Source of the DNA: an uncultured Pseudomonadota bacterium
GTDB lineage: Bacteria; Pseudomonadota; Gammaproteobacteria; Natronospirales; CAVUBB01
Direction of reading: 5' to 3'
Assembly (NCBI GenBank): GCA_963739695.1
Contig: CAVUBB010000005.1
Coordinates: 4,342-68,341, forward strand
DNA length: 64,000 nucleotides
Shown: one piece after another, positions 12,081 through 54,299 of the stretch
How positions within the stretch are numbered: the first letter of the stretch is position 1
Layout: the number at the start of each line of letters is the position of its first letter
Made by a program: the position numbers and the translations under genes
Notes under the pieces: generated by a model
What the model was told of the DNA's origin: nothing
Database searches by the model: none
What the model saw: the letters and a program-made list of their open reading frames with translations, nothing else

Positions 12081-12124
12081 AAATGATATCCTTCAGATTA
12101 TGTTATGTTTTTCGTTAAAACATC

Positions 12125-13852: not shown

Positions 13853-13933
13853 CAGTTCTTATTCAGGAAATCCTTAATAACGTCTCCGACATACCCCTTC
13901 TCAGCATCGGTAAACGCGAATTTTCACCACGCT

Positions 13934-14644: not shown

Positions 14645-14884
14645 TTTCCCCCAAAGAAGTCCGAACGTATTTTTTTGACCATAGCATAAAAGCTATCTGA
14701 TGAAATCAGGTTTTGAATGGTATCATAAAAGCATGAACCCCCTCAACAATAGAAATATTATTTATATTTTATCAATGTTATATAAAACCGTAATAGTACC
14801 GGTCGATCTCCAGAGAAAAAAATCGTGATTTTGGCAATATTCGCATGGTTGCGGTTTTTTTAGAACTTACTCTCGTTGAGATTA

Positions 14885-16156: not shown

Positions 16157-16159
16157 ATT

Positions 16160-17430
16160 TTAATCGTCTATTTCCACGCCGATCATTTCACAAATGGTTC
16201 CGCATTCCGATTCAAAGTCGGCACCGGCCTCCGGCCTGAAGATGATATGGCCGAGCAACCAGGAATCGTAATCCGAAGGCGGCAATATAATCCTGTGGCC
16301 TGGAGAACGGGGAAAGTCAACTTCAAGGACCCGGGGATCTTCAAGAGCGGCCTTCGCATCGATACTTCTGAGAACACCCGCCCTATCGGCATGGACCCGC
16401 ACACCGATGTGGGGGCTGACGGCTGATGTATCCGGCGGATAGACCGGCTTTCCTTCAGCGAAATCGATGGCAAGTGCAAGCATATCCAAACCGGAGGCCT
16501 TCCGAAGAAGAAACGGAAGGCAATCACCGCCGGGCCTGGGGGTCATTTCTATAAAAACGATCCGGCCGTCATTGTAGGATAAAAATCGGCCATACAGATG
16601 CATCGCGTAAGGCCAAGCGCCCGGGCGCCCTCCCCTAAGGCTCCGGGAAGAAGTATATCGACAAAATGCTTCGGGAGAGATGCCGGCAGCACGTACCCGC
16701 TGATGGTTCCGAACGGTTTGTCGGCCGCTTTGATCTTTCGGGTAATCCGGATGATATCGACCCGGTCTCCATCCAACAGGAAATCGCAACTGTATTCTTC
16801 TCCTTCGACATATTCTTCAGCGATCATCCGAGGGGCGTCCGCATCGCCGGAGTCGTAAAGGGGGTTATTTTCTCTTTGCCCGAGTCCTTCCAGGACAATT
16901 CGAAAATTCAATTCACACGCCTGCATGCTGTCGCAGACGTAGACAAGCTCGCTGCCGCTGCCGCTTACGGGTTTCAGTACGCAGGGCCCTTCCATTATTT
17001 CAAAAAAAGCCGCCACATCTCCGGCAGACCGGATCATGCGGAAAGCCGGGCAGTCTACGCCGTTCTGTTGCCAGAGGGTTTTGGAAAGGTATTTGTCCCG
17101 GCAATTTTCGATGGCGCCGGTGGAAGGATACGGTAACCCTAGTTGTTCGGCAATTTTTGCAGCGAGCGCCATGGACTCGCAGTCGAAGCAAGCGACACCG
17201 ATCGGATACAGGTTATACAAAGCAAGATGGGTTGTCAGGGCGCCAATTGCCGCCTCCTCATCCATAAGATCACATAGAACCTCTTCCACGGTCGCGGGTA
17301 CGGGCTCTCCGGCCTGTCGGCGAATCGCCGGCGCCGTGACAAACACCACCCTCCCGGGACAAGCGGTTCGAATCCACTCGATGTAATCTGCCGTGGTACC
17401 GATGACAAGCACTCTCGGGCGCTTATGCAT
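16160..17430 (-). pseudogene. ATP-grasp domain enzyme, one frameshift near 16560-16620
   Basis: ORF 16549..17457 has CRDKYLSKTLWQQNGVDCP...CVLKPVSGSGSELVYVC...IAEEYVEGEEYSCDF. It continues in ORF 16160..16789 (RIVFIEMTPRPGGDCLP...). Likely start is MHKRPRVLVIG at 17430. Confidence 0.7.
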
Positions 17431-18379
17431 AAACCATGTTGTGAAATGCAGGCGCATTCACCGAAACATCCGGCGCCGGCAGTCTAATCTCGTAAAGTGG
17501 ACGGACGGCAAGATGAAATCGCTTTTTCCAGCCGAAATCCCCGCAGAGAAAATCGACCGAATCAAACCGTTTTCCGCATGCCCAGTCCATATGGTGAAAG
17601 TTGATCAGCTTGGCAACCCCGGGAAATTCTCGATGCGTACCGCCGGCAAGCACCGTGTAGGTGTTTTTCCAGACGGCGCCGACATCTACTGCCGCAATTT
17701 TCCCGCCAAGCAGAACGGTGGTGATCCGAAGCATCCCATTTTTATGAAGACGGCTTATCAGACTTTCGAACGCCCCCAGGAAACGCGGATCCTTGAAATA
17801 GGAGTGTTCCCAGAAACTCTCAAGGTTCATTCGGAACATGACGGCCGCATCGGACAAATGATCATGCCGAAACGACAACCCCTTGGCTGATAAAGCGGCC
17901 ATCTCCCGAGCCAGTTGCTTGCGGGATTTTCCGGAAAACTCCTGCCAGTATCGATGGGAGTCGTAACCGTAAAGACCCGGATAAAACAGATACCCCTCTT
18001 CGTCCTCGCGGAGCGTCTCCTCGTTTGGATGCCACGGTTCGGATGTCATATACCGCAGGTGGGCGGCATCGGGCACAGCCTCCAGCAACGCCTGGACGGT
18101 TTTGTGCCCGGAGGCCCACAGCTTGTTCTGCTCGAGCCAGGTCTTGCCGTGCCAGGTCTCGCCCGGGAAATAGCCGAAGCAGTGATTCTCTTTAATCCAG
18201 CTTAGGGGAAGAAGTCCTGAAACGGTCCCCCCCTGCTCGGCCACAATAAAATAGGGCTGCCGGGAAAAAGATCTGGCAAAGGCCTCCCGAACCATCCACA
18301 TGTCGAAAAGGCAGGCCGGGGGGTTCATCGTCCAGAGCCGCCGGCACTCCTCAAAATCCTCGCTGACATGAATTCTCAT
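17423..18379 (-). CDS. GNAT-like acyl/aminoacyl-transferase (BioF2/CelD/FemAB-like fold)
   Basis: 318 aa. The C-terminal half (LLGGKIAAVDVGAVWKNTYTVLAGGT...KLINFHHMDWACGKRFDSVDFLCGDFGWKKRF) resembles Acetyltransf_6-type proteins. Assignment is by eye only. Confidence 0.6.
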   Translation of the reverse strand: MRIHVSEDFEECRRLWTMNPPACLFDMWMVREAFARSFSRQPYFIVAEQGGTVSGLLPLSWIKENHCFGYFPGETWHGKTWLEQNKLWASGHKTVQALLEAVPDAAHLRYMTSEPWHPNEETLREDEEGYLFYPGLYGYDSHRYWQEFSGKSRKQLAREMAALSAKGLSFRHDHLSDAAVMFRMNLESFWEHSYFKDPRFLGAFESLISRLHKNGMLRITTVLLGGKIAAVDVGAVWKNTYTVLAGGTHREFPGVAKLINFHHMDWACGKRFDSVDFLCGDFGWKKRFHLAVRPLYEIRLPAPDVSVNAPAFHNMVYA

Positions 18380-18383
18380 TCTC

Positions 18384-18809
18384 CTATCGCCTCAAGTTAA
18401 CCTGAAGAACGGAATGGTTCCCGCCAAAAAAGTGTTTCGAAAACGCCTCGACTGCCTCCGCGTCATACGGTTTGCAGCTGAAGACATCCAGGTAGACGGT
18501 ATTCGTCTGATTTGCAAAATGGGCGGAGATGAGAGATGTCTCGATAAGCTGAACCATGGAGTATCCGGCCACCCGTTCATCTTCTCCGAAATGCACAACC
18601 TGGGTCTCCCCGAACCGCTTCATGTCGATCAGATCACATAGTTCCGCCACAAACCTGCGGATCGCATCGGCATCCCGGATGGTTTCAGGCGTGCATCCGT
18701 ATATGTCGATGGAGGAAGCAATCCCCCAGGCATTCAGAGCCACGGCTTTTTCCATAATGTCAACGCCCTGATGACCCGGCGGCGCTTCTTCTTTAAACAA
18801 GGGTATCAT
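18384..18809 (-). CDS. S-adenosylmethionine decarboxylase-like pyruvoyl enzyme (SpeH/SpeD class 1 family)
   Basis: VQLIETSLISAHF resembles the E-S self-cleavage site region, and YLDVFSCKPYD resembles the C-terminal conserved block. A likely true start is MEKAVALNAWG at 18755 (123 aa). Confidence 0.7.
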   Translation of the reverse strand: MIPLFKEEAPPGHQGVDIMEKAVALNAWGIASSIDIYGCTPETIRDADAIRRFVAELCDLIDMKRFGETQVVHFGEDERVAGYSMVQLIETSLISAHFANQTNTVYLDVFSCKPYDAEAVEAFSKHFFGGNHSVLQVNLRR

Positions 18810-19136
18810 ATTTTGCAGCTCCTTTTTGCATCCCTAATCCTCTCCAAAATCATCCCTGGGGGTGGGCTTGCGGTGAAATCGTTTTCCGGATTTTTTCCGG
18901 CTGCGTGGTTCAAAGTCTTCGTCGTCGTAAGCGAGCACTTTTGGGCGTTTTCGATAAATCGGCTCCCGGCTCGCCTCTTCCAGATCAGGATCAAATTCTA
19001 TTTTCTTCATGTTACGGTCGCTTATAATATCTGGATGCAGATAGTTATCTTCCTTATGTGTGTTTGCTTCCCATAGCCCCTCACAAATCGACATCCGGCG
19101 TGTCTCTTCAAGGAGCAGCTTCCGGCCCCCACAAAA

Positions 19137-19151
19137 GCATATTGCATGCCA
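19137..19151 (-). promoter_or_regulatory. candidate sigma-54 (-24/-12) promoter pointing at the AdoMetDC operon
   Basis: The minus strand reads TGGCATGCAATATGC, with GG and GC in the canonical spacing of TGGCAC-N5-TTGC. It lies about 45 nt upstream of ORF 18834..19094 and is divergent from a sigma-54 activator gene. Confidence 0.4.
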
Positions 19152-19336
19152 TTCATTCGAGTGAATTTATAAACGACTATTTTAGTTTATTTTTCCATTT
19201 TTCCGGCCATTAGATAATAAACGACAACATTCCTTTTTTAGGTATATCATTACCTGTTATATATTTTTTAAGCATTTTATTACTGTTTTATGTTTTTTTA
19301 CATCCGAAACAACTTTACGGGTCATTTCGGAATAGG

Positions 19337-19357
19337 AATATTAATTTAATTAATATT
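19337..19357. promoter_or_regulatory. perfect 21-bp AT palindrome in the divergent intergenic region (possible UAS/operator/IHF-type site)
   Basis: AATATTAATT-T-AATTAATATT, inside the AT-rich gap of about 400 bp between the sigma-54 promoter candidate and the activator gene. Confidence 0.3.
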
Positions 19358-19537
19358 TCATAACTGTTAGGAAGTTTCGCGATTTTGGTTGCAATGCTGA
19401 TGTTACATATTTCAGGCATATCCTTTCCGATAATGCTAAATTATTATTTCAAATCATTTTATTTTCCGGTATGGTATTACCTTATTTTTAATCAGTATGA
19501 CATCCAATATGACGCATACAACTTCGAGGGCATCATC

Positions 19538-20953
19538 ATGCTGATTCGACTCACACTGGCAATCAAGGACAACAAGCTCCAACGTCACCTTGAAAGAAAA
19601 TTCTCGCAGTCCGATATCCGGGTGGATTCTCTCGGTCACCTGCCCGATGCCTGGCAGAAACTGGTTCGGGGCTGTGGGGACGCCGTCGTCATCGATGCGG
19701 GACTCATACCACGGCCTGTCGAAAGCGGCATTTCGACATTAAACAGCCTGCCCGAGCAGCCGACCACGGTTGTTCTGAGCGACAGCGGTGATTCAGAGAA
19801 ATTGGCACAACTGACCGCCGCAGGCGCTGATGTCGTTCTTCATTCAGGAATTTCAAAAAAAAGCATGGTTGAAGCCATCGAGGCGACACTCGAATCCCGC
19901 CGGCAGTTTATCCAGAAGGAATGGTTCGGCCGGAGGGGGCTTCCGCTGCCGAAAATGTCGGATTTTGTTTCAAATAGCCAAAGCATGCAGCTATTCATGG
20001 AAGAAGTCCATCATGTCACCTCAAGTACCGCCCCCATGCTCATCCTCGGAGAAACCGGTGTGGGAAAGGAACATCTTGCCAAAGCTATCCATGCCGAAAG
20101 CCCGAGATCGTCGGGTCCGTTTATCGCCGTCAACACGGCGGCCCTTCCGGAACAGCTTCTGGAAAGCGAGCTTTTCGGTCATGAACAGGGCGCCTTTACA
20201 GGTGCCGCCAGATCCCGTCGGGGCGCGTTTGAACTGGCCCACGACGGCACCCTGTTCCTGGATGAAATCGGAGAAATGCCCCTGCATCTTCAGACAAAGC
20301 TTCTCCGGGTGCTCCAGGACTTTGAAGTGCGACCCGTGGGTGCTGAAAATCCCATCTGGGTGGATGTCCGCGTCATCGCCGCAACCAACCAGGACCTTGA
20401 AAAAGAGATCGTGCAAAAGAACTTCAGGAAAGACCTGTACTACCGCTTGAGCGTGGTGATGCTCACCATACCGCCGCTCCGATCGCGAAGGGAAGACATA
20501 CCGGCCATGTCCCGGCGGTTCATAACCTATTACCGGCACAAAATCGGGAGAGAGATCGACGGCCTCCAGGAAGATGCCCTGGAGGCCCTGTGCAATTACG
20601 ACTGGCCCGGAAACATAAGGGAATTGATGAATGTTATCGAACGTGCCATGCTCCTGTGTCAGACAGGAACAATCACTCTTTCGGATCTTCCCAATGTTTT
20701 TCATAACGGCCTGCACACTGAATCCAGTAGTCGGCCCGAGGGCTTGTTTGATACAACCGATTGGGCAAAAAAGTCTCTCCCCCAAGTGCAGCAGGAGGTG
20801 ATGCGTCAGGTGGAACGGTTGTATCTTGAAACTGTCCTCCGGGAAACCCGGGGACGTGTGGGCAAGGCCGCCCGGATTGCCGGCATCCACCCCAGGGGCA
20901 TGTACAACAAAATGAAGCAGCTTGGACTTAAAAAAGAGGATTTTAAAAAATAG
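19538..20953 (+). CDS. sigma-54-dependent transcriptional activator (NtrC-family EBP with degenerate receiver-like N-domain)
   Basis: Walker [16 protein letters not shown] loop, Walker [13 protein letters not shown]-terminal Fis-type HTH ([21 protein letters not shown]). Start taken at MLIRL (19538) rather than the ORF start in the AT-rich leader. Confidence 0.85.
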
Positions 20954-20970
20954 GCTCAGCGAAAACAACG

Positions 20971-22560
20971 ATGCCACATAAAATCCATATCACAATCGAC
21001 CCGGACATTCTCCACGATCGGGAAAAGATTCGTCAGCGAATATCCAAAGCGACAGGGTTCCCCTTCGAGGACTTTGTAATCGTAAGGCGTTCCGTGGATG
21101 CACGGAGCAAAAAGCCTCAATATACTCTTCAAGTCGACTTGATAGATAAAAGCGGCCGTGTTCCGGAGCCGGCAACCCCCGCTTTCAGATCTGTCCGGGG
21201 GGATCGATCCGTCTTGATTGTCGGTGCAGGGCCCGCCGGTCTTTTTGCCGCCCTCACGCTGATAGAGCAGGGCATCAAACCGGTTGTCCTTGAACGGGGC
21301 AAGCCTGTCGAGCAGCGCAGCAAGGACATCGCCATGCTGCTGCGTCACGGCCGTTTGGAGGCCGAATCGAATTACTGCTTCGGGGAGGGCGGGGCCGGGA
21401 CCTTTTCGGACGGAAAGCTCTATACGCGTTCCACAAAACGTGGGGATGTCCGGGAAATCCTCGATATATTTATCGCCCACGGGGCCCATAACGAGATTCG
21501 CATCGATGCCCATCCCCACATCGGCTCCAACCGGCTTCCGGGGATCGTCAAAGCGATGCGCCGGACTGTGATAAACTGCGGTGGTGAAATCCACTTCGGT
21601 TGCCGGGTAACTGATTTTCTCATTCGAAAGGGTCGCATCATCGGCGTGGCATCGGACAGAGGATACGGATTCGAGGCCGATGCCGTCATTCTTGCCATGG
21701 GGCATTCGGCACGCGACGTTTACACCCTGTTTCAAAAAAAGAATATCGCCGTGCTGCCGAAAGCCTTTGCGGTGGGGGTTCGGGTTGAGCATCCCCAGGC
21801 CCTCATCGACACCATCCAGTACCACCAGTCACCCAGACACCCGAACCTGCCCCCGGCCACATACCGGTTCACCAGTCGGATCGAGGAACGCGGCGTCTAC
21901 TCTTTCTGTATGTGCCCCGGCGGCCATATCATTCCTGCCGGAACAAGCCCTGATGAGCTGGTGGTCAACGGCATGAGCAATGCCAACAGAAATGCCCCGT
22001 ATGCAAACTCGGGCGTCGTGGTGGAGGTCCGACTTGAGGACATCGAAGCTTATCACAAACAAGGGCCCTTTGCGTTTCTGGCCTTCCAACAGGAACTGGA
22101 ACGCCGCGCATTCCAATTCGGTGGCGCCTCAGGCCAGCAGGCGCCGGCCCAGAGAATGACCGATTTCATTCACGGCAGGCAGTCCGCTTCCCTCCCGGTG
22201 ACCTCTTATCTTCCCGGCATTCAAACGGCGCCGCTTCACGAGCTGTTTCCCCCGTTCCTTGCCCGGCGTCTGGCAAACGGCTTGACGGATTTCGGCAAAA
22301 AACGAAAAGGGTTTGTATCCGAGGAAGCGCTTCTTCTGGCGGTTGAATCGAGAACCAGCGCCCCGGTTACGATCCCCAGGGACGAGATGACGCTGATGCA
22401 CCCTGAACTCAAGGGACTCTACCCATGCGGAGAGGGGGCCGGATATGCAGGTGGCATTGTGTCCTCAGCAATGGACGGCCGGCGGGTCGCAATGAAAATA
22501 TCCGAGGGATTGAAAGCAGGAGGGTTAACTGGTAAGAGAGCAGTGGGCAGTGAACAGTGA
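20971..22560 (+). CDS. FAD-dependent oxidoreductase (COG2509-type NAD(FAD)-utilizing dehydrogenase)
   Basis: 529 aa. VLIVGAGPAGLFAAL dinucleotide fold, YCFGEGGAGTFSDGKLYTR and CMCPGG blocks are typical of this family. Confidence 0.8.
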   Translation: MPHKIHITIDPDILHDREKIRQRISKATGFPFEDFVIVRRSVDARSKKPQYTLQVDLIDKSGRVPEPATPAFRSVRGDRSVLIVGAGPAGLFAALTLIEQGIKPVVLERGKPVEQRSKDIAMLLRHGRLEAESNYCFGEGGAGTFSDGKLYTRSTKRGDVREILDIFIAHGAHNEIRIDAHPHIGSNRLPGIVKAMRRTVINCGGEIHFGCRVTDFLIRKGRIIGVASDRGYGFEADAVILAMGHSARDVYTLFQKKNIAVLPKAFAVGVRVEHPQALIDTIQYHQSPRHPNLPPATYRFTSRIEERGVYSFCMCPGGHIIPAGTSPDELVVNGMSNANRNAPYANSGVVVEVRLEDIEAYHKQGPFAFLAFQQELERRAFQFGGASGQQAPAQRMTDFIHGRQSASLPVTSYLPGIQTAPLHELFPPFLARRLANGLTDFGKKRKGFVSEEALLLAVESRTSAPVTIPRDEMTLMHPELKGLYPCGEGAGYAGGIVSSAMDGRRVAMKISEGLKAGGLTGKRAVGSEQ

Positions 22561-23639
22561 ATGGTAAAAAGGGGCTCAGGAGAATCATGACAGACCTTTC
22601 AGGACAACTCCATCATCTACTGGGAAAAGGACATCCGGTGGTACTGGCAACCGTCATACGTCACGTCGGTTCAACGCCCAGGGGCGCCGGGGCAAAAATG
22701 ATCGTATGCAAAGGGGGGAACATTATCGGCACCATCGGCGGCGGCTCAGTGGAAGCCGAAGTGATCCGAAGCGCTCCGGATGTTTTCAATTCCGGGGGCG
22801 CAATCATCCGACATTTCAACTTCAGCAGTACCGATATAGCAAGCTCCATGGGAATGATCTGCGGTGGAGAAATGGACGTTCTCATGGAGCGTCTGGATTC
22901 CGTTAAAAACACCCTGGCCATATTCAGTGCACTGGCATCAAATATCCGGTCCGGAGAAAAATGTCTCCTGGGCAGGGCCTTCGATCCCGAACACAGCTCA
23001 CCCCGGCATCACCATCTTTTCCTTGTGACCGGTCAAAACGTCGTTTTCGGAAATGCTCCGTTCGACACGGCAGGGCTTGAAGAATTGAAAAAAACCGCAT
23101 TTCAGTGCCGGGCGCCAGTCATGATGTCGGCGGAAAATCTCACTATCATCGTCGATCCGTTTTTGTCCGCAGAATGCGTCTATCTGTTTGGAGCGGGGCA
23201 CGTGTCTCAACAAGTCGCCCGGATCCTGAACATGGTCGATTTCAGAACTGTGGTCATTGATGACCGGAAAGAATTCGCCAACCGGAATCTCTTCCCCACG
23301 GCCGATGATATCTGCGTGCCGGAGAATTTTACCGCGGTATTTTCTGAGCTTCTCATCAAAAGGAACGGCATCATTGTCATCCTCACCCGGGGCCACGCCC
23401 ATGACCAGACCGTACTCGAACAGGCGCTTAAAACCGAGGCCGGGTATATTGGTATGATCGGCAGCAAACGGAAACGGAATACCATTTACGACAATCTATC
23501 GAAAAAGGGAGTACGCCCGGAAGATCTTGCCCGGGTCCACAGCCCTATCGGTCTTGAAATCGGCGCCCAAACACCCGAAGAAATCGCCGTGAGCATCACG
23601 GCCGAGATCATCGCCTACCGTGCGGGCACGAAGTCATGA
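22557..23639 (+). CDS. XdhC/CoxI family molybdoenzyme maturation factor
   Basis: LATVIRHVGSTPRGAGAKMIV...GTIGGGSVE and a Rossmann-like VYLFGAGHVSQQVARIL...VIDDR. 4-nt overlap with the upstream gene. Confidence 0.8.
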   Translation: MNGKKGLRRIMTDLSGQLHHLLGKGHPVVLATVIRHVGSTPRGAGAKMIVCKGGNIIGTIGGGSVEAEVIRSAPDVFNSGGAIIRHFNFSSTDIASSMGMICGGEMDVLMERLDSVKNTLAIFSALASNIRSGEKCLLGRAFDPEHSSPRHHHLFLVTGQNVVFGNAPFDTAGLEELKKTAFQCRAPVMMSAENLTIIVDPFLSAECVYLFGAGHVSQQVARILNMVDFRTVVIDDRKEFANRNLFPTADDICVPENFTAVFSELLIKRNGIIVILTRGHAHDQTVLEQALKTEAGYIGMIGSKRKRNTIYDNLSKKGVRPEDLARVHSPIGLEIGAQTPEEIAVSITAEIIAYRAGTKS

Positions 23640-24781
23640 ACCACCAGGCCATAGTCGCCATCGTCCTCGCTGCGGGAGAATCCGGGCGCATGGGAACGCT
23701 CAAACCGCTTCTGCCCTTGGGGGAAAAATCCGTCCTTGAACGGGTTGTGGCCCTTTTCCATACTGCGGGAATCTCAGAAATTCGGGTGGTGACCGGCCAC
23801 CGTGGAGAAGAAATCCGACATCATCTGCCCTCGCTCCAGGTAACATGGATGCACAACGACAACTATCGCCAGGGAATGTTCTCATCCATCAAAAAAGGGC
23901 TCCGTGACCTGCCATCGGAACTTTCGGGTTTTTTTATGCTGCCCGTCGACATCCCCCTGGTTAGACCCCAAACGATTGCCGCCATGCTGGAAAAATGGAG
24001 CACCCTTGAAAACGAGACATCCATTCTGTATCCTTCCTTCCTGGATGAACGGGGTCACCCGCCGCTTATTTCGACAAGACTCATCCCGGAAATCCTGAGA
24101 TGGAAGGGTCAAGGCGGCCTGAACGCGTTTCTCGAATCACGGGAAGCCGAGGCACGAGACCTGTCCGTCATTGATGAATATATCTTGAAAGACATGGACA
24201 CCCGGCCGGATTACGAGTACCTCACTGCCGCCCGTAACCGATACGATATCCCCACAGCCGCCGAGTGCATGGCGATTTTGAAGGACCGGGCGTTCGTATC
24301 CGACACGACAGCGTCCCATTGCCGTACGGTTGCCAACTTGGCGGTTTATTTAGGGAACCACATTGTTTCAGGAAACAGCGCGATTCACCTCTCCCGCATC
24401 TCTTCGGCCGCCCTGTTGCACGATGTGGCAAAAGGTCGCCCTGACCATGCACGCAAAGGCGCGGCGCTTCTATCGGAATTGGGTTTTCCCGGCATTGCCG
24501 ACATCGTTGCCAGCCATATGGATATCGATTTCCCGGAGGACGCCCCTCTCACCGACCGTGAGGTGGTGTACCTGGCGGATAAGCTCGTCAAAGGCGACAA
24601 GCTGGTCTCCCTGTCCGCTCGTTTCGATGACAAGCTCGCCCGACACGGCCAGGATCCGGACGCAAGAAGCGCCATTTTAAAGCGTAAAGCCGATACCATG
24701 AGGATAGTCCGACGTCTTGAAAAGGAATCCGGAAAACAGCTTCAAAGTTTGCTTAATGAATTTATCCGGAATACCCCATGA
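23636..24781 (+). CDS. MobA/MocA-like nucleotidyltransferase fused to a C-terminal HD domain
   Basis: N-terminus IVLAAGESGRMG...LPVDIPLV (NTP_transf_3-like). C-terminus HCRTVANLAVYLG...LLHDVAKG...VASHMD (HD). 4-nt overlap with xdhC-like gene. Confidence 0.75.
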   Translation: MNHQAIVAIVLAAGESGRMGTLKPLLPLGEKSVLERVVALFHTAGISEIRVVTGHRGEEIRHHLPSLQVTWMHNDNYRQGMFSSIKKGLRDLPSELSGFFMLPVDIPLVRPQTIAAMLEKWSTLENETSILYPSFLDERGHPPLISTRLIPEILRWKGQGGLNAFLESREAEARDLSVIDEYILKDMDTRPDYEYLTAARNRYDIPTAAECMAILKDRAFVSDTTASHCRTVANLAVYLGNHIVSGNSAIHLSRISSAALLHDVAKGRPDHARKGAALLSELGFPGIADIVASHMDIDFPEDAPLTDREVVYLADKLVKGDKLVSLSARFDDKLARHGQDPDARSAILKRKADTMRIVRRLEKESGKQLQSLLNEFIRNTP

Positions 24782-24787
24782 CCATTT

Positions 24788-26068
24788 TCACATAATCCAG
24801 TTGCTGCGCGCAGCAACCACTGCAGCGGCAGTTTCCGGCAACCAGGGGGTGAGTTCCTCTCTAAGATAAAACCGGGGATGAAGCAGGGCATCATCCGCCG
24901 AAACCAGGCCCTCCGACCGCGCCAGACGCTCGATGGCCGTATCAGGATAAATACGAATCCCTACCGACAGACGCATCATATTAAGATCGAGACGATCTGC
25001 GAAGTCAATGCTGTTTTGAACGGTTTCCCGGGTTTCACCCGGGCCGCCCAGCAGTAAAAATCCCATTTGCCGGATGCCATTGGCTTTGAAAAGATTCGAA
25101 ATCCTAACTACCGTTCCAGGGTCGGTATGTTTGTTCATCCATTTCAGTATGGTCTCATCGCCGCTCTCAAAGCCTATCGAAACCTGGGCGCATCCGGCCC
25201 GGGCCATTTTCACCACCAGTTCCTCATCGACAAAGTTGGGGTAGACAATCGCCTGCCACCGGAAGTCGATACCGGCAGCGATAATGGCATCACAAAGGGA
25301 CTTGGCGTAAGACATGGGAAGATTGAAGGTGTTGTCGACGAAATAAATCTGTGAGATCCCTGCTTCCACGTAACGACGCAGCGCAGCCGTAACCGAAGCG
25401 GTGGAACGCTTTCTTAATCTGCGTCCTTCGATTGCCGGTGTGGAGCAGTAGCTGCAGCCCATGGCGCATCCACGCCGGGTTTGAAACGGCAACCAGATAT
25501 TTCGGGTATCAAAATCGGGATGTGTCGAAAGCAACGGGTCGGGAATCGGCAGCGCATAGTCGTCAAGCACTTTATGAACAGCGGACGACCGCGCCGGCCG
25601 GCCATCGGAAAAATAAAGGCCGGGTAGCCGGGGTATGCTTTCCCCCCGCTCAAGGTAGGACAGGAGTGTAACAAAAGTCCCCTCCCCTTCCCCCTGGATT
25701 CCCATATCCGCCCCCAGGTAATTCAAAACACTCTGCGGATAGATACTGAACCCGGCGCCGCCAAGAATCACCGGGGAGTCCGAACTCCGACGGCAGGCAT
25801 CCACCACCGGTTTGACCGCATCCAGGAGGAATCGGGTCTGCGCCGCGGATTGATCGTCGATGTTGCGTACCGAAATACCGATCACTTCCGGGGAAAATGT
25901 ACAAACGGTTTCTATCACCAGCCGTCGGGAATCCGCCGGTGTCATCAGATTCACGGTTCTTACCGAATGCCCCGCCTGTTGCGCGGCCTGGGCCACGCAT
26001 GCCATGCCCAGCGGCATCACCGGCATATTTATCTGTTCCGTATTGGCTGAAATCAGTAATACTTTCAT
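24788..26068 (-). CDS. B12-binding-domain radical SAM enzyme
   Basis: N-terminal MKVLLISAN...PLGMACVAQAAQQAGH (cobalamin-binding-like domain), then RRGCAMGCSYC (CxxxCxxC). Confidence 0.85.
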   Translation of the reverse strand: MKVLLISANTEQINMPVMPLGMACVAQAAQQAGHSVRTVNLMTPADSRRLVIETVCTFSPEVIGISVRNIDDQSAAQTRFLLDAVKPVVDACRRSSDSPVILGGAGFSIYPQSVLNYLGADMGIQGEGEGTFVTLLSYLERGESIPRLPGLYFSDGRPARSSAVHKVLDDYALPIPDPLLSTHPDFDTRNIWLPFQTRRGCAMGCSYCSTPAIEGRRLRKRSTASVTAALRRYVEAGISQIYFVDNTFNLPMSYAKSLCDAIIAAGIDFRWQAIVYPNFVDEELVVKMARAGCAQVSIGFESGDETILKWMNKHTDPGTVVRISNLFKANGIRQMGFLLLGGPGETRETVQNSIDFADRLDLNMMRLSVGIRIYPDTAIERLARSEGLVSADDALLHPRFYLREELTPWLPETAAAVVAARSNWIM

Positions 26069-26160
26069 GGTATTTGACCTTTAGTTCATATTATTGTCAG
26101 ACTTATCTCTCTTATCAACAAGTTGTCAATTGCAAAGGAAACAAAATGGCTTATTATAAG

Positions 26161-26304
26161 GAGCCAGTTTCAAAACGTTTCAGTTTGGCCAAGCTCAAGG
26201 CGGATCGGAAATTTCAACCGCAGGCATACTATGGGTATTTCGAGGATTGAAATTTCCGACCAACGCAGAGATCGGCCGAAATGGGGCGTTTTGAAATTGG
26301 CTCT
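26161..26304. repeat. 144-bp MITE-like element, copy 2 (inverted relative to copy 1)
   Basis: GAGCCAGTTTCAAAACG...CGTTTTGAAATTGGCTCT. Its reverse complement aligns along the full length with 5937..6080. Confidence 0.8.
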
Positions 26305-26381
26305 AAGGAAAAACATTTGCCTTATGTTGTATCTTGTCATAAATTTAAACAATAAAAAATCGCTCAATCCAAATTTCCCTA

Positions 26382-27764
26382 TTGGAGTTCGAAATGAAAA
26401 TATCTGGCCCAGTGACAATGCTCCCGGTCGTCGTATGGTTGTTACTTTCTTTTTCCGGAACAGGCATTGCAGAGACTGAAATCAGCGTTCCTCGGCTTCT
26501 TGAGATGACGGAAGCCATCCGTATTGCCGTTATCCACAATCCTGCCGTTACCGAAGCCGAGGCCCTGGTCTCCGCCTCCGACGAGCGCATGGTCCAGGCG
26601 AGATCGGGCCTTTACCCCCAGATCAATGTCTCCGGGACGTTCAGCAGAACCACAAGCCCCATGCTGGCCTTCGGAACAAAGCTGAACCAGGGACGCATCA
26701 GTGGGGAAGATTTTATCCCGGACCGCCTTAACGATCCGGAGGCAATCGACAATTACGGACTGACGTTCTCGGCTATGTGGTCCCTGTTTGACAGCGGGCA
26801 GACATGGTACGGCCTCCGGCAGGCGCAGATGGGTCAAGCCACCGCCGGCCTTGTATTGGACCGGACGATCCAGGAAATCATCGCCCGCACGGTATCCACC
26901 TACAACGGATTGTTGCTTTCTATGCAACAGCATGAGACGGTTCTACAGGCGCTGAAAACAGCTGAAGCCAACCAACAGACGGTGCGTTCCCGTTTTGAAA
27001 GCGGGTTTGTCGTAAAAAGTGACCTTCTGCAAACCCAGGTGCATATTGCCAATCTGAATCAACAACGGCTTCAGGCAGAAAGCGGGATATTGGTGGCACG
27101 GGCGGAACTGTGCATGGCCATGGGTGTCGACGCCGACAGGTCTTTTGAACCGGCAGACAGCCTTGAAAGCGAAGATGAAACGACGGGGACACTGGATGAG
27201 TGGCTAAATAAAGCCGCTACTACCCGTCCGGATTTTAAAGCGCTGCTTCAGCAGGAGTCCATGGCGGAAACCGAGGTCAAAAAGGCCTCGGCGGCCCGGC
27301 TGCCCAGCGTTTCCCTTTCCGCAGATTACGGCACCAACTCCGAAAGTTTTAACGATGGCAACGACAGTTATTCTCTTGGCGCTCTGGTAAATCTGAATCT
27401 GTTTTCCGGTTTCAGGGTTTCGGCCAAAGTAGGAGAAGCCGCCGCGATGCTTAAGCGGATTAAGGCCGGACGCGCCGCCCTGGAGCAGAGGATATCCGTT
27501 GAAACAAGGCGCGCCTTTTATCAGGCGAAAAGCACCTGGGCGCAAATTCGGGTTGCGGACGCTTCCATGGCCCAGGCCGAGGAAGCGCTTCGCATTGTAA
27601 AAAACCGGTACGAGGGCGGCCTGTTCACCATCGTGGAACTTCTGAATGCGGAACTGGTGCTGCAGCAGGCACGGACCAACCGACTTCGGGCAATCCATGA
27701 TTATAATGCCGCCAGGGTCGATCTGATGCTGGCAACCGGTACACTGGATGTGGATTTTAAATGA
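26382..27764 (+). CDS. TolC-family outer-membrane efflux protein
   Basis: 460 aa, signal peptide, two OEP-type repeats (e.g. NPAVTEAEALVSASDERMVQARSGLYPQINVSG..., RYEGGLFTIVELLNAELVLQQAR). Confidence 0.85.
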   Translation: MEFEMKISGPVTMLPVVVWLLLSFSGTGIAETEISVPRLLEMTEAIRIAVIHNPAVTEAEALVSASDERMVQARSGLYPQINVSGTFSRTTSPMLAFGTKLNQGRISGEDFIPDRLNDPEAIDNYGLTFSAMWSLFDSGQTWYGLRQAQMGQATAGLVLDRTIQEIIARTVSTYNGLLLSMQQHETVLQALKTAEANQQTVRSRFESGFVVKSDLLQTQVHIANLNQQRLQAESGILVARAELCMAMGVDADRSFEPADSLESEDETTGTLDEWLNKAATTRPDFKALLQQESMAETEVKKASAARLPSVSLSADYGTNSESFNDGNDSYSLGALVNLNLFSGFRVSAKVGEAAAMLKRIKAGRAALEQRISVETRRAFYQAKSTWAQIRVADASMAQAEEALRIVKNRYEGGLFTIVELLNAELVLQQARTNRLRAIHDYNAARVDLMLATGTLDVDFK

Positions 27765-27773
27765 AATAGGAGA

Positions 27774-28940
27774 TTGAACATGTCTTCTTCGAAACTGTAC
27801 ACCTTGATCGCTATTCTTCCCATTATTCTATTCGCCGGCTGCGGCGACACAAAAGATTCAGGGCATTCCGATTCGCAAACCGGCGTCAAAGCACCTGTGG
27901 CCACGATCGAGGAAACCGTGCGGCCCATGTATCTTGAAGCAGTAGGAACGATTCAGTCCATGACCACCGGAACCCTATCCGCAAAAATCATGGGCACTAT
28001 CCGGACCGTTCATGTGAAGGAAGGAGACCGTGTCAAGGCAGGCGATCTGCTGGTATCCATCGACAACAGGCAGGTTGCGGCTCAACTCGCCCAGGCGAAT
28101 GCCGTGGTGTCCGAAGCGCGTCAGGGTGCATCCGCCGCCGATTCCGCAAAAAAGGCGGCCCAGGCGGGCGCCGACCTGGCTGCCGCCACCTATGAGCGAT
28201 ATAATAAGCTCCTGGACGATGACTCCGTAAGCCGGCAGGAATACGATGAGGTCTCCGCCAGGTATCAACAGGCCCGGGCCGCCATGAAACAGGCGCAGGA
28301 AATGGCTGCAGCAGCCCGCGCCCGGGTCCACCAGGCGGAATCGGGACTGGCCGCGACTGCGGTCGCCGACAAGGACGCCACTGTCCAGGCGCCTTATAAC
28401 GGCGTCGTCAGCGCCAAACTGGTAGAAGCGGGCGATCTTGCCACACCGGGAAGGCCGCTGCTCACCTTTGAAAGCGAAACCGGCTTTGAAATGGCGGTGG
28501 ATCTTCCTGAAACGCTGTTTGGTTCCGTAGCGACCGGTCAGCCGGTCACGATACGAATTCCCGCGCTGAACGATCTTGCCCTGGCCGGTCAGGTGACAGC
28601 AGTGTCCCCTGCCGCCGACGCACAAAGCCGAAGCTTTCTGGTCAAGATCAGCCTTCCGGAAAACAACCGGGTTCACGCCGGCATGTTTGCCAGGGCTGAG
28701 ATACCCACCGGAGATGAGCGGGTTCTTCTCGTTCCTCGAAGTGCCGTTTTACATCAGGGGCCTCTTACCGGCATCTTTGTCCTGGACGACAAGGAAACAG
28801 CTCGGTTTCGCCTGGTTCGAACCGGCCGCTTCATTAATGATGCGGTGCAGATCATCTCCGGCCTGAAATCGGGCACGCGGTTTGTGACACAACCACCCCC
28901 GACTCTGGCGGACGGCGACAGAGTGGAGGTTGGCCTATGA
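27774..28940 (+). CDS. RND efflux periplasmic adaptor (MFP) lipoprotein
   Basis: Lipobox LFAGC, then barrel-sandwich, coiled-coil and beta-barrel organisation ([24 protein letters not shown]..., [16 protein letters not shown]...). Confidence 0.85.
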
Positions 28941-31900
28941 CTGCAAAAACAGGGCCGTGCCGGAAAAATAGCGGGATTTTTCATCAATTCCAAGCTGACC
29001 CCCCTGATAATTGTCGCTTCCATCCTCCTGGGCATCGCGGCCATCATTGCGCTGCCCCGGGAAGAGGAGCCCCAGATCATCGTCCCCATGATCGACATCT
29101 TTGTCCGGATGCCCGGTTCGATTCAAAGGAAGTGGAGCAGCGATTTACCAAGCCCATGGAAAAACTGCTGTGGGAAATCCCGGGCGTGGAGTATGTCTAT
29201 TCCACCTCCAGCCCGGGCATGTCCATGGCCATCGTGCGGTTTTATGTCGGCGAAGACGAAGAAAAAGCCATTGTACGCCTGCAGTCCAAACTGATGGCCA
29301 ACATGGACCGAATTCCCCTGCTGCGTCACCTCGCCCCTTGATCAAACCGCGCTATATCGACGATGTCCCCATACTGGCGCTCACTTTCTGGGGCGACACT
29401 GCAGATCACTATACCCTGCGACGGGTGGCCGCGGAAGTGGAAGATCTGCTCAAGCGGGAGCCGAATGTCTTCCATCACCACTCTCATCGGCGGTAGAGAA
29501 CCGTCAGGTTGAAGTTCGACTGGATCCGGTCCGTCTGGCGCCTTCGGCCTCGACTGGAAGCGGTAGCCGGCATGTTGTCTTGCCGGCCAACCAGGACGCC
29601 GATGCCGGCAGCTTACCCCTCCTCGTGGGTCAGAGTCTCGTTCATGCCGGCGGATTTTCTCAAGGATGCGGAAGATGTGGCCGGGTGGTGGTCGGCGTAT
29701 CCGGAGCGGCCAAACCGGTATACCTGCGGGATGTCGCCGACATCGTCGACGGCCCCGAGGAGCCCGCCCAGTATGTTTTTTTCGGCAGGACCGGCCGCCG
29801 GGCCGAGAATGCCACGGCCGTCACGGGCGCCATGCATCCGGCGGTCACCCTGACCGTGGCCAAACGCAAGGGAACCAACGCCATCAGCTGTGGCCGACAA
29901 GGTGCTGGAGCGCCTTGAGGATGCCCGCGGCACGGTCATTCCCGACAATATCCACATCACCATCACCCGGCATTACGGCGAAACAGCCAAGGAAAAATCC
30001 GACGAACTGCTGCTTCACATGCTCATCGCCATCATATCGGTTACCGTCCTCATCTGGTTTACCCTGGGGCACCGGGAATCCGGCGTAGTGGCCTTCGCCA
30101 TCCCGGTCACTCTGGCCCTGACTATGGCTGTCTTTTATCTGTACGGCTATACCCTCAACCGCATCACCCTTTTTGCCCTGATTTTTTCCATCGGCATCCT
30201 GGTGGACGACGCCATCGTGGTGGTGGAAAACATCGTGCGCCATTTCCACCTCGATGAAAACCAGGGCCGTAGCCAAATTAAAAGTCGCCATCGAAGCCGT
30301 GGACGAAGTCGGCAACCCCACCATCCTGGCCACCTTGACCGTCATTGCCGCCATTCTTGCCCATGGCCTTCGTGGGCGGACTCATGGGGCCTTATATGCG
30401 CCCGATCCCGGTCGGTTCGTCGGCCGCCATGGTCTTTTCGCTGATTATCGCCTTTATCGTCACCCCCTGGGCTTCGGTGCGGCTGATCCGATAAGCATGA
30501 AACCGCCGGCGGCCGAAGGCCGCAATCGATCACCATCACCGGAAGACTGGGCCACCGTGCTTTACCGCCGGGTCATGGAGCCCTTTGATCCACAGCGCCA
30601 ACTGGCGGTGGGGCTTTCTCTGCGGGTGATCGTAGCTGCTGCTGGTCGCCTTGAGCACTGGTGGCCTGGGACTGGTCCGGGTCAAAATGCTGCCCTTTGA
30701 CAACAAAAGCGAATTTCAGGTGATCATCGATCTGCCCGAATCCGCCACCCTTGAAGAGACCGCCGCCGCTGCCATGGAGATGGGCGATTATCTGAAGACG
30801 GTCAACGAAGTCACCGATTACGAAATTTACGTCGGCACCTCCGGGCCCTTTAATTTCAACGGACTGGTGCGTCATTACTACCTGCGGCACGGCGCCCATA
30901 CCAGGCAGACATCCAGGTGAACCTGGCGGGCAAAGGCAGAGCGCCAAGAACAGAGCCATGCCATCGCCAAACGCGTGCGCCCGGCCCTAAAGAGCCATTG
31001 CCGACCGCTATGGCGCGCGGGTCAAAGTGGCCGAAGTGCCTCCCGGCCCGCCGGTGCTGTCCACCCTGGTGGCGGAAGTATACGGTCCGGATTATCAGCG
31101 CCAGCGTGAACTTGCGCTCAGGATTCGGGGGATATTCGAGCAGACCGCCGGCGTGGTGGATGTGGACTGGTATCATGGAAGGAGACCAGCGAACGCTACC
31201 AGCTGGAGGTGGACCGTCAAAAGGCGGCCCTGCACGGCATCAGCACCGCCCAGATCACCGGCCGCTACGCTCGGCCTGAGCGGACGGCAGGTCGGGTCTG
31301 CTTCATCTGCCGCGAGGAGCGAGAAGATGTGCCGATCATCCTGCGGCTGCCCTGGCATTCCCGGGCCGGCATCGACCGGCTGATGGCCATCAAAATCGCC
31401 AGCCCCGGCGGCAGACCATGATCTCCCTAGCTCCGACCTCGTGCACGGTGAAGCGGACGCCGATCGACAGGAGCATTTACCATAAAAACCTGATGCCGGT
31501 GGTTTACGTGATCGGGGATGTCGCCGGCGGCAAAGGAAAGCCCGGTCTATGCCATTCTGGAAATGCGCAAGAAAGATCGACGGCACTCACGATTCCCGAA
31601 GGTTACCGTATTGCCCAGCATCACCGCCGACTGTCCCGGAAAGCGACCGCAACTTCCCATGAAATGGGACGGCGAATGGCAGATCACCTACGAGGTATTC
31701 CGTGATCTCGGGCATCGCCTTCGCTGTGGTGCTGCATTCTTATTTTCGTGCTGGTGGTAGGATGGTTCCAGTCCTTTTCCACCCCGTTCGTGATCATGGT
31801 GGCCATTCCTTTTTCACTGATCGGGATTCTGCCGGCCCACTGGCTCATGGGTGCTTTTTTCACCGCCACCTCCATGATCGGCTTTATTGCCGGTGCCGGC

Positions 31901-32215
31901 ATCGTGGTACGCAATTCCATCATCCTGGTGGATTTCATCGAACTGCGCGTCAGGCAGGGCATGCCCCTGGATCAGGCGGTGATGGACGCCGGCGCCGTCC
32001 GCTTCCGCCCCATGATGCTGACGGCGGCAGCGGTGGTGGTCGGCGCCTCGGTAATTCTTTTCGATCCGATTTTTCAGGGACTGGCGATCTCTCTGATGGC
32101 CGGTGAAGTTGCTTCTCTGCTTTTTTCGCGCATGACGGTTCCCATCCTCTATTTCTTGAAAAAGCGCTGGGAAAAGACCCATCTACATCATGAAGAAATA
32201 GGAAAGGAACGCTGA
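28937..32215 (+). pseudogene. RND efflux permease (AcrB/CzcA superfamily), shattered by roughly 8 or more frame changes
   Basis: Colinear RND blocks lie in different frames: [48 protein letters not shown] (my translation), [126 protein letters not shown], and [22 protein letters not shown]...[34 protein letters not shown]. Confidence 0.85.
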
Positions 32216-32220
32216 AAATA

Positions 32221-32874
32221 ATGTTGAGTCATCTGGGAACTCTGCTCTCACGCTGGTCCGAAAAGTACATGCCGGACCCCTTCATCTTCGCACTGGTTCT
32301 AACCTTTATCACCTATTTACTCGGCATCTTCATCGCACACCAGGGCCCCTTCCTGATGGTTCAGCACTGGTACAAGGGATTCTGGGAGCTTCTCTCTTTC
32401 GGCATGCAGATGGTGCTCATTCTGGTCACCGGCCATGCCCTTGCCAGCGCCCCGCTGATAAAAAAAATCCTCGGCCGGGTGGCCGACATCCCGAGAACGC
32501 CTTCCCAGGCGGTCTATCTGACCGGATTTGTCTCCTGCATTCTCGGCTGGATACACTGGGGATTCGGGCTCATCGGCGGGGGCGTCCTGGCCCTCTTTGT
32601 GGCCCGCTCCGCCCGGGAAAAAGGCTACCGGCTTCACTATCCGCTTGTGGTTGCCTCGGCCTACCTGACCATGCTTATCTGGCACAACGGCTTGTCCGGC
32701 TCCGGCCCACTTCTGTGCGCGACCCCAGGCCACTTCCTGGAATCAGAGACCGGCATCATCCCGATTTCAGCAACTATCTTCAGTCCCATGAACCTCATGA
32801 TCTCTGCTGGAATCCTCTTCGTTTGCCCACTGGTGATGACAATGTCAGCAGTTACCCGCACCCGTCAGCAATGA
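32221..32874 (+). CDS. short-chain fatty acid transporter (AtoE family), N-terminal half only; last ~8-10 codons are a chimeric tail
   Basis: RWSEKYMPDPFIFALVLTF...FGMQMVLILVTGHALASAPLIKK...LLCATPGHFLE aligns by eye with E. coli AtoE residues ~10-225. AtoE-type proteins are about 440 aa (from memory). The ORF stops inside the composition junction. Confidence 0.7.
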   Translation: MLSHLGTLLSRWSEKYMPDPFIFALVLTFITYLLGIFIAHQGPFLMVQHWYKGFWELLSFGMQMVLILVTGHALASAPLIKKILGRVADIPRTPSQAVYLTGFVSCILGWIHWGFGLIGGGVLALFVARSAREKGYRLHYPLVVASAYLTMLIWHNGLSGSGPLLCATPGHFLESETGIIPISATIFSPMNLMISAGILFVCPLVMTMSAVTRTRQQ

Positions 32875-32875
32875 C
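32845..32875. other. abrupt composition and gene-content junction (probable contig join or chimera)
   Basis: A truncated gene on each side. G+C rises sharply to the right. No IS end, tRNA, repeat or N spacer. Confidence 0.7.
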
Positions 32876-33782
32876 AGAGCCACGTATTGCTCGGCTGCTG
32901 TATGTAGCCGCCACGCGCGCGCGCCGCCGCCTGCATCTTCTGGGGCACGTGAAGCCGCGTATCGACAAGGAAGGCGAGGTCACCCTGAGCGCGCCTGCCG
33001 CGCCGACGCTGCTCGCGCAGTTGTGGCCGAGCGTCGAGGCTGAATTCCAGCGTGCTTTCGACGCGGCTGCTGCGCCGCCCGGGGCGGCAGGTGCCGAGGC
33101 GCCCGCGCCCGGTGCCACACTTTACCGCCTGCCGGTTGATTGGCGCCTGCCGCCGGCGCCACCTTCGCTCGATACGGTCCCGGCCGAGGCGGCTGCGGTG
33201 GAGGAAGCTATAATCGAGTTTCGCTGGGCCGGCGAGACCGCACGCCGCGTGGGTACGGTGGTGCACCGGGCCTTGCAGATCATCGCGCGCGAAGGCGCCG
33301 ACGCCTGGCCCGAGGCGCGCCTGCGTACGGCGGCACCCGCGCTGCGCGCATTGCTGGTCCAGGCCGGTGTGGGCGCGGGCGAACTCGAAGGCGCGCTGGC
33401 GCGCTGCATCGATTCGCTGGCGTGTACGCTCGCCGATGCCACCGGACGCTGGCTGCTCGACCCGGCCCATGCCGAGGCCCGCAGCGAATACGCACTGAGC
33501 GGCATGTTCGATGGGCGCCTGGTCACGGGCATCATCGATCGCAGCTTCGTCGACGAAGATGGCGTACGCTGGATCGTGGATTACAAGACGGGCGCGCACG
33601 AAGGCGGTTCGCTGGAAGCCTTCCTTGCCGCCGAACGCGAACGCTACGCGCCGCAGCTCACGCGCTACGCGCGCCTCATGGGCGCACGCGAGAAGCGCCC
33701 GGTCCGGCTGGCCTTGTATTTTCCGGCTCTGGCCGCATTCACCGAATGGGCGGCGCCGGAATCTGGAGGACGCGATGACTGA
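32871..33782 (+). CDS. C-terminal ~300 aa of a UvrD/AddA-type helicase with PD-(D/E)XK nuclease domain (5'-truncated)
   Basis: Helicase motif VI LLYVAATRARRRLHL at the very start. RecB-like nuclease motif GIIDRSFVDEDGVRWIVDYKTG near the end. The N-terminal ~800 aa expected for the family are absent. Confidence 0.7.
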   Translation: MTEPRIARLLYVAATRARRRLHLLGHVKPRIDKEGEVTLSAPAAPTLLAQLWPSVEAEFQRAFDAAAAPPGAAGAEAPAPGATLYRLPVDWRLPPAPPSLDTVPAEAAAVEEAIIEFRWAGETARRVGTVVHRALQIIAREGADAWPEARLRTAAPALRALLVQAGVGAGELEGALARCIDSLACTLADATGRWLLDPAHAEARSEYALSGMFDGRLVTGIIDRSFVDEDGVRWIVDYKTGAHEGGSLEAFLAAERERYAPQLTRYARLMGAREKRPVRLALYFPALAAFTEWAAPESGGRDD

Positions 33783-34674
33783 ACAGATACATCAACAGCT
33801 GGTGGTGGCGATCTCCTCGCGCGCGCTGTTCGATCTCGAAGAGAGTCACCGCGTGTTCATGGACGAAGGCCTCGAAGCCTATTCACGCTACCAGATCGAA
33901 CACGAAGACGAACTGCTCGAACCCGGCATCGCCTTCAACCTGGTGAACAAACTGCTGCGGCTCAACGAGGGCAGCAAGCACACGCGCGTGGATGTGATCC
34001 TGCTCTCGCACAACAGCGCCGATACCGGCCTGCGCATCTTCAACTCCATCCAGCATTACAAGTTGCAGATCACGCGTGCCGCATTCACCAACGGCCTCTC
34101 GCCGTACCGTTACGTGGCGCCGTTCGGAACCACGCTGTTTCTGTCCGCCGAACCCGACGATGTGCGCGCCGCGCTCGACGCCGGGTATGCCGCCGCCACC
34201 ATCGTGCCTTCGCGCGCCGGCGAGAGCGAAGGCGAGCAGCTGCGCATCGCTTTCGATGGCGATGCGGTGTTGTTCTCCGACGAGGCCGAACGCGTGTTCA
34301 AGGAGCAGGGCCTGGATGCCTTCGCCGAAAGCGAGAAGGCCGCGGCGCGCAAGCCACTATCCGGCGGTCCGTTCAAGGATTTCCTCGCCGCCCTGCACCG
34401 TATCCAGTCCGAATTTCCCATCGATGGCTCGCCCATCCGCACGGCACTGGTCACCGCACGCTCCGCCCCCGCGCACGAACGCGTGATCCGTACGCTGCGC
34501 GCGTGGGATATCCGTATCGACGAGGCGCTGTTCCTCGGCGGGCTCGATAAATCCGAATTCCTGCGCACCTTCGGGGCCGACATCTTCTTCGACGACCAGA
34601 CCGGACATTGCGAGCGCGCCTCGATGCATGTGGCCACCGGCCATGTGCCGCATGGCGTGGCCAACGAAAAATAA
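33775..34674 (+). CDS. 5'-nucleotidase (PF06189-type HAD-like)
   Basis: MTEQIHQQLVVAISSRALFDLEES...RIAFDGDAVLFSDEAERVF...PIRTALVTARSAPAHERVIRTLRAWDIRIDEALFLGG...IFFDDQ. ATG at 33775 overlaps the upstream stop. Confidence 0.8.
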   Translation: MTEQIHQQLVVAISSRALFDLEESHRVFMDEGLEAYSRYQIEHEDELLEPGIAFNLVNKLLRLNEGSKHTRVDVILLSHNSADTGLRIFNSIQHYKLQITRAAFTNGLSPYRYVAPFGTTLFLSAEPDDVRAALDAGYAAATIVPSRAGESEGEQLRIAFDGDAVLFSDEAERVFKEQGLDAFAESEKAAARKPLSGGPFKDFLAALHRIQSEFPIDGSPIRTALVTARSAPAHERVIRTLRAWDIRIDEALFLGGLDKSEFLRTFGADIFFDDQTGHCERASMHVATGHVPHGVANEK

Positions 34675-53793: not shown

Positions 53794-53832
53794 GTTTGGA
53801 GGTTTCGCTCGCCCCTTCGGGGCTTTCAGCGA

Positions 53833-53866
53833 CCTACTTTCCTTTGCGCCGCCAAAGGAAAGTAGG
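53833..53866. repeat. perfect 14-bp-stem hairpin in a GC-rich ORF-poor stretch
   Basis: CCTACTTTCCTTTG-cgccgc-CAAAGGAAAGTAGG. Confidence 0.5.
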
Positions 53867-54299
53867 CAAAGGAAAGGCGGCCCCGGAGGCGGCGCGCTTG
53901 CTTCCGGCTTCGCCTCCAGCGCGTTCCCGGCCGTGCTCGCGTCCTCGCGGCCGCCCATACAGGCCATCCCTGGCCTGGATGGGCGGGCTTCGGCATCCCT
54001 GCCTCGCCCGCACCTGCGGTGCGGCTATTCGCTCCGGGCGCTGCGCTGTCCGGCGCCGTCTACGGGCGGGGGGGCAGTGCCCGACGCTCGGTTCTCTTAG
54101 TTCTCTTAGCGATGCCTACACCCAGGAACCCGGATTCCAGGCGATGTCGCAAAGTTCACTCCTCTCGAATGTGTCTGGGGTGGTCAACTGCTCCATTTCA
54201 ATGCAGGGGGAAAATTGATGACCGCGGGAGATCAAGCCTAGTATCAGTTTTCGCCCCTGGAAACCCGACTCCGCGTTAAGCGAAGGGTAGTCCAATACG

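Follow-up and report, generated by a model that had tools for sequence, protein, structure and literature searches.

An abrupt junction in a metagenome-assembled contig is very probably an assembly artefact, with an unsplit Nanopore read as its likely cause

The locus studied here raises the question of whether an abrupt change between two genomic backgrounds arose in a cell or in an assembly. The window, the whole 64,000-nucleotide stretch that was analysed, corresponds to C5:4342-68341, where C5 is contig CAVUBB010000005.1 (~176 kb) of an assembly of 24 contigs and 2.54 Mb. An earlier note had placed at 32845-32875 a junction that truncates one gene on each side. Such a junction is present in the deposited sequence. 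The left edge of that interval was exact, and the right edge was found 16 nt further on, at 32891. Judged by the similarity of relatives, the left organism's DNA ends at window position 32844, at about codon 208 of a transporter gene of ~447 aa. By similarity to another contig of the assembly, C6, the right organism's DNA begins exactly at 32892, which is residue 830 of a 1125-aa helicase-nuclease. Because the left similarity ends at 32842-32844 and the C6 similarity starts at 32892, the intervening 47 nt (32845-32891) were taken as filler, and these match neither flanking organism. The reported shift in composition was also reproduced, with a G+C of 0.59 in the 300 b left of the join and 0.73 in the 300 b to its right. 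Across the window, the left side ranged over G+C values of 0.47-0.60 and the right side over 0.61-0.71, up to a low-GC islet with a DRT3 defence system.

The gene left of the join is the 5' half (codons 1-208; 32221-32844, plus strand) of a short-chain fatty acid (SCFA) transporter gene (AtoE/SCFA_trans). Its ORF (32221-32874) encodes 217 aa, and the Pfam profile SCFA_trans (PF02667) was matched over positions 1-212 of 453 (E=1e-67). A full-length match of ~450 aa was not obtained, and the ORF covers the N-terminal half of a family member only. This bears out the earlier reading of an AtoE-type transporter cut mid-gene, here at codon ~208 of ~447. Relatives of 447-448 aa shared 92%, 89%, and 78% amino acid identity with the truncated protein. 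DNA similarity to three of the transporter relatives ceases at 32842-32844, and their genes run on to 447-448 aa. Among named genomes, the best relative (L004, 92% aa) was found in a MAG labelled Ca. Krumholzibacteria, on a contig of 2.85 Mb. The next named-genome relatives are in two Desulfobacterales/Thermodesulfobacteriota MAGs, at 78% and 75% aa, respectively. The left organism's own continuation of the transporter was not recovered on an independent contig, and searches for exact copies of the adjacent MFP, TolC, and beta-CASP proteins gave no match. P0001, the best full-length transporter match, was considered as the left organism itself and rejected; at 89% identity and from another run (SRR29850986), it is another relative. 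As in these relatives, the gene would be expected to continue past the join position in the left organism.

On the right, the plus-strand frame from 32892 reads RLLYVAATRARRRLHL, followed by 296 codons that contain a PD-(D/E)XK nuclease domain (PF12705). This stretch (32892-33782) is the last 296 codons and stop (residues 830-1125) of a UvrD-type helicase/PD-(D/E)XK nuclease, and the helicase tail recognized earlier at this place is confirmed as part of a gene whose full length is 1125 aa. The intact 1125-aa protein is encoded on C6, where PF00580, PF13361, and PF12705 are all present; it combines UvrD N- and C-terminal helicase domains and PDDEXK_1 in a single protein of ~1100 aa (AddA/RecB-like). 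The C5 copy holds residues 830-1125 only. Database relatives of the helicase are almost all 1100-1145 aa long, with residues 600-1125 covered at 98-100%, and therefore extend across the breakpoint (residue 829/830). Named relatives come from Burkholderiales, Betaproteobacteria, and Gammaproteobacteria. The transporter and helicase genes are both cut mid-domain at the join. The chimeric ORF reported at 32715-33782 (plus strand, 355 aa) exists and crosses the join. It is not a gene; over its first ~59 codons it reads the transporter out of frame, together with the filler.

The undisrupted sequence of the right side was found in the same data set, in the overlap between C6 and C5 and in an independent Logan contig. 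Window 32892-34638 (C5:37233-38979) is duplicated in the assembly as C6:142134-143880, the last 1,748 b of C6, with 99.6% identity. The homology starts sharply at 32892, and the preceding 60 b are unrelated. Upstream of the breakpoint, C6 carries the remaining helicase in the same frame without interruption. The exact 5'-nucleotidase protein encoded downstream of the helicase led to Logan contig L031 (3,668 b, run ERR11594398). L031 matched C6 at 100% identity over the 1,270 b that precede the breakpoint, and it matched C5, also at 100%, over the 2,398 b that follow, which takes it 651 b past the end of C6. Upstream of the breakpoint, its identity to C5 was 24%, which is the random level. All 7 differences within the C6/C5 overlap are confined to the terminal ~615 b of C6, a stretch in which L031 is 100% identical to C5. 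The end of C6 is therefore a poorly polished overhang. As judged from the assembled contigs, the real genome runs from C6 into C5 at C5:37233 with an intact helicase-nuclease and no foreign DNA. The truncation of the helicase in C5 is artefactual. At the C6 end itself, C6:143265-143880 (the copy of window ~34020-34638) differs from both C5 and L031 by 5 substitutions and 2 indels, and its copy of the 5'-nucleotidase is frameshifted. Besides the 1,748 b shared by C6 and C5, contig ends also overlap between C5 and C13. At C5:175965-176246 and C13:84341-84622, the ends of the two contigs share 282 b at 100% identity, in reverse orientation, which suggests that C5 continues into C13.

The sequence left of the join (window 1-32844, unstranded; as a whole C5:1-37185, 37.2 kb) was compared with the MAG that holds L004, the one labelled Ca. 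Krumholzibacteria (G021). C5:1-4400, window 1-7658, and window 14886-32844 were collinear with G021:C3:2741804-2771948 at 81-90% nucleotide identity. This collinearity with a single locus spans ~37 kb, apart from an extra 7.2 kb at 7659-14885. The right block had only scattered matches to G021, to conserved respiratory genes on another contig of that genome. A second Logan contig of run ERR11594398, L030, was found with a DVU_1551-family NTP transferase protein of the left side. Window 18292-26216 (C5:22633-30557) was 99.96% identical to this separate contig, with one mismatch and one indel in 7.9 kb. Tetranucleotide profiles of the two halves, which the earlier note had proposed to compare, gave C5:1-30000 as the strongest outlier in the assembly. 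Its 10-kb chunks (n = 3) had distances of 0.052-0.063 to the genome mean, and the maximum of the 227 chunks from other contigs was 0.047. In 20 relatives from the same order as the binned genome, the right-side CcoG had full-length matches of 63-67%, and a left-side protein matched only the N-terminal domain of ~30%-identical paralogues. The taxonomy of genes on either side likewise separated, the left going with the Ca. Krumholzibacteria-labelled MAG and the right-hand helicase with Burkholderiales/Gammaproteobacteria. Collinearity, tetranucleotides, helicase relatives, and these gene comparisons all place the two sides in different genomes. Together with L030, they establish that C5:1-37185 belongs to a different bacterium from the same sample, and that the sequence from 32892 on belongs to the binned organism, of a Burkholderiales-like Pseudomonadota lineage. 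The suggestion that DNA of two organisms had been mis-joined is upheld by the C6 overlap, the L031 bridge, and the collinearity of the left side with a MAG of another lineage.

Two further observations concern this comparison. The 7.2 kb at window 7659-14885 has a G+C of ~0.48 and encodes an HD-GYP response regulator, a histidine kinase, and neighbours, and G021 has only ~200 b at this place. It is probably a strain-specific island or indel of the foreign organism; a second assembly join is also possible. The next tetranucleotide outliers in the assembly were C18:40001-50000, C24:80001-90000, and C23:240001-250000, with distances of 0.045-0.047. Islands, rRNA, or additional foreign DNA could account for them.

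The join stands in a deposited contig and both organisms were in one sample, which makes transfer physically possible. Real illegitimate recombination or horizontal transfer would then have put ~37 kb from another phylum inside the host helicase gene in part of the population, with C6 and L031 representing the unrearranged majority. We regard this as very improbable. There is a single junction, and the foreign block reaches the contig start with no second host flank. Both genes are cut mid-domain, and neither microhomology nor a repeat, integrase, tRNA, or IS end is seen at the join. Compared with the separate contig of the co-resident organism, the foreign DNA shows 99.96% identity, and the intact arrangement occurs in two independent assemblies. 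The filler, moreover, ends in a sequencing adapter, as described below. Recombination and an island are both disfavoured because there is one junction with mid-domain cuts and no tRNA or repeats, an intact host locus in two assemblies, and an adapter end. The particular version in which ~37 kb of anaerobe DNA entered the Burkholderiales-like helicase-nuclease gene in a minority of cells, the adapter-like 10-mer being coincidental, is a shade less probable still. An origin as a genomic island or through an IS or att site was rejected on the same grounds of a single junction, genes cut mid-domain, and no tRNA, repeats, or target duplication. Genomic islands resemble this locus in their sharp boundary with an abrupt change of composition and gene content. 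They differ from it in that here there is no second boundary, integrase, tRNA/att, or direct repeats, and that the same sample contains the host locus in uninterrupted form.

The join had been described as marked by nothing. This is true of biological features, as a search at the join for a tRNA, an N run, a terminal repeat, a target duplication, or a flanking repeat found none, and no mobile-element end or recombinase was found there. It does not hold for the filler, which marks the join with a terminal adapter 10-mer. The 47 nt at 32845-32891 (plus strand) showed no similarity to L004, L005, L006, C6, or L031. Its last 10 nt (32882-32891, plus strand) are ACGTATTGCT. They are identical to the final 10 nt of the ONT read-start adapter and lie flush with the first base of the right organism. 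The read-start (ligation) adapter is AATGTACTTCGTTCAGTTACGTATTGCT (10.1101/2022.07.07.499093). ACGTATTGCT occurs 2 times in the 2.54-Mb assembly, both strands counted. The copy at the join ends one base before the independently set breakpoint, in the orientation adapter-then-insert, and the chance of this at a fixed position is ~1e-6. The other copy (C18:108485, minus strand) was considered as an adapter and taken as chance; it lies in a uniformly AT-rich stretch with no adapter continuation.

The length of the filler, 47 nt, is near that of a read-end plus a read-start adapter (22+28 nt). In a global alignment to the 50-nt model of the two adapters, the filler scored 8.5 against a null of -2.9 +/- 3.4 (p~0.0013), and in gap-tolerant local alignment to the adapter it reached p~0.01-0.02. 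The alignment to the adapter model describes the filler as a degenerate remnant of the read-end and read-start Nanopore adapters, in which only the terminal 10 nt are exact. With blastn-short, chance 11-13-mer matches to internal parts of the adapter were found elsewhere in the assembly, and no other substantial adapter remnant was found. With such chance 11-13-mers and a local p of only ~0.01-0.02, the adapter match was rejected as a stand-alone genome-wide statistic. What counts in the argument from the adapter is therefore the position, together with how the filler fits the 50-nt model globally, and not the match by itself. An adapter in the adapter-then-insert orientation was thus found at the join as a partial match with a degenerate upstream part. 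Internal adapters are a recognized mark of false chimeric ONT reads (10.1101/2022.07.07.499093), and 1.7-2.2% of the reads in ONT metagenome data sets are chimeric (10.1101/2021.11.19.469328).

Some other artefact could also have produced the join, namely a ligation chimera from library preparation, a wrong path through the assembly graph, or concatenation after assembly, with the adapter-like 10-mer coincidental. The evidence for two organisms and for true continuity from C6 to C5 applies equally to such a cause. Most of the filler is weakly adapter-like (local p~0.01-0.02), and chimeric ONT reads free of known adapters have been reported (10.1101/2021.11.19.469328). However, 47 nt foreign to both genomes would not result from a blunt ligation chimera or from an error in the graph, and deliberate concatenation normally gives either Ns or no inserted sequence. 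The two sides share no repeat at the join by which a graph might have been led astray, and the exact terminal 10-mer stands in the right place and orientation with a chance of ~1e-6. We therefore consider these other artefacts unlikely, though less so than recombination.

The explanation that we hold with high confidence is that the junction is an assembly artefact inside C5 of a long-read MAG, in which 37.2 kb of foreign DNA were fused to the host, probably through an unsplit, adapter-bearing Nanopore read. The most likely cause is that two molecules were recorded as a single Nanopore read that was then used in the assembly. Two DNA molecules would have passed through a nanopore back to back, or otherwise have been logged as one read, and would have been left unsplit, with the adapter between them escaping trimming. 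The assembler would then have extended a path with this chimeric read, so that the foreign sequence, at its end, became attached to the host genome at an internal position. C6 would thereby have been stranded as a dead end whose 1.7-kb overlap is poorly polished. The garbled consensus of the read-end and read-start adapters would make up the 47-nt filler, and the error-rich 3-4 kb before the join fit very low read support. The earlier suggestion of a mis-join or a concatenation of contigs in a contaminated bin was right about two organisms. The join is not between two binned contigs; it is a chimera within one assembled contig. The left ORF is a member of the SCFA_trans family truncated by the artefact, and there is no biological meaning at the join.

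Long-read-type signs accompany the join, in the indel-bearing C6/C5 overlap, the dense frameshifts left of the join, and the adapter 10-mer. These signs may indirectly point to Nanopore ligation chemistry for the library of the assembly. A literature search found no publication or platform record for run ERR11594398. The left block has its closest relative in the Nanopore-based Microflora Danica project, from which nothing certain follows for the platform of the present assembly. The dense frameshifts are in an RND efflux pump gene of the foreign block (~28950-32215, plus strand), which shows at least 6 frame switches in 3.2 kb. In tblastn with the L004 and L005 pump proteins, the frames followed each other as 3,2,1,2,3,1,2. 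Frameshifts in the pump near the join, against the near-clean 7.9 kb further left, fit a thinning of read support toward the join. The claim that frameshifted genes all lie to the left was supported in part, by the RND pump, which is broken, and by a sigma-54 activator, which appears split, and the ten right-side proteins compared were full length against NCBIfam profiles. Four short minus-strand ORFs at 15.5-18.4 kb are probably separate genes rather than frameshifts.

Frame breaks were also seen outside C5. The orthologous RND pump in the related MAG (L004:2228-5900, on G021:C3) is likewise split across several frames, and the breaks may reflect a systematic long-read error common to both assemblies or gene decay in the lineage. 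The sigma-54 activator of the foreign block (window 19385-20953) is split in L030 into calls of 477 aa and 50 aa (HTH_8). If it is split in C5 too, the cause is either a genuine frameshift or a basecalling error of a systematic kind, and not a consensus error specific to C5.

Among known artefacts, the closest likeness is to ONT middle-adapter chimeras, on which Porechop splits reads. As in these, unrelated genomes are joined by a non-genomic filler, here ending in the last 10 nt of AATGTACTTCGTTCAGTTACGTATTGCT (10.1101/2022.07.07.499093). The true continuation is likewise found elsewhere in the same data, and the assembly here is of the long-read metagenome style. Unlike these chimeras, the adapter here is intact in its last 10 nt only, with the remainder a degenerate consensus, and the case was judged from assembled contigs. 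Contamination by mis-binned contigs, of the type addressed by CheckM and GUNC, shares with this case the presence of other-lineage DNA inside a genome bin. It differs in that the foreign DNA here shares a contig with 139 kb of genuine host sequence, to which it is fused, and is without marker genes.

The reported contamination of the bin is 0.02. Since the chimera lies within one contig and the foreign part has no marker genes, contamination checks based on marker genes miss it and contig-level filters keep it. A species-representative genome in a public catalogue thus holds 37.2 kb of other-lineage DNA with about 30 genes, among them sigma-54 regulators, a B12-radical SAM enzyme, ABC and RND transporters, and an HD-GYP regulator. 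All features left of window position 32845 pertain to the other organism and not to the binned one. If uncorrected, the record would yield false gene-content and metabolic calls for the lineage, false inferences of horizontal transfer, two false pseudogenes, and one chimeric ORF. The correction is to cut C5 at C5:37185 and C5:37233 (window 32844/32892), drop the filler, take the left 37.2 kb out of the bin, and merge C6 with the remaining C5 through the 1,748-b overlap. The value of this finding lies in data hygiene and not in biology.

The genuine host part of the window offers a contrast to the join. The DRT3 defence system at 54.1-60.1 kb is a genuine low-GC islet. Two antiviral reverse transcriptases, Drt3b (685 aa) and Drt3a (425 aa), are encoded there in full at window 54486-57811 on the minus strand, both above the NCBIfam cut-offs. 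At the left edge of this islet, window 53802-54066 (C5:58143-58407) is a multi-copy repeat of ~265 b, with copies on C22 and at no fewer than 4 sites on C23 at 84-89% identity.
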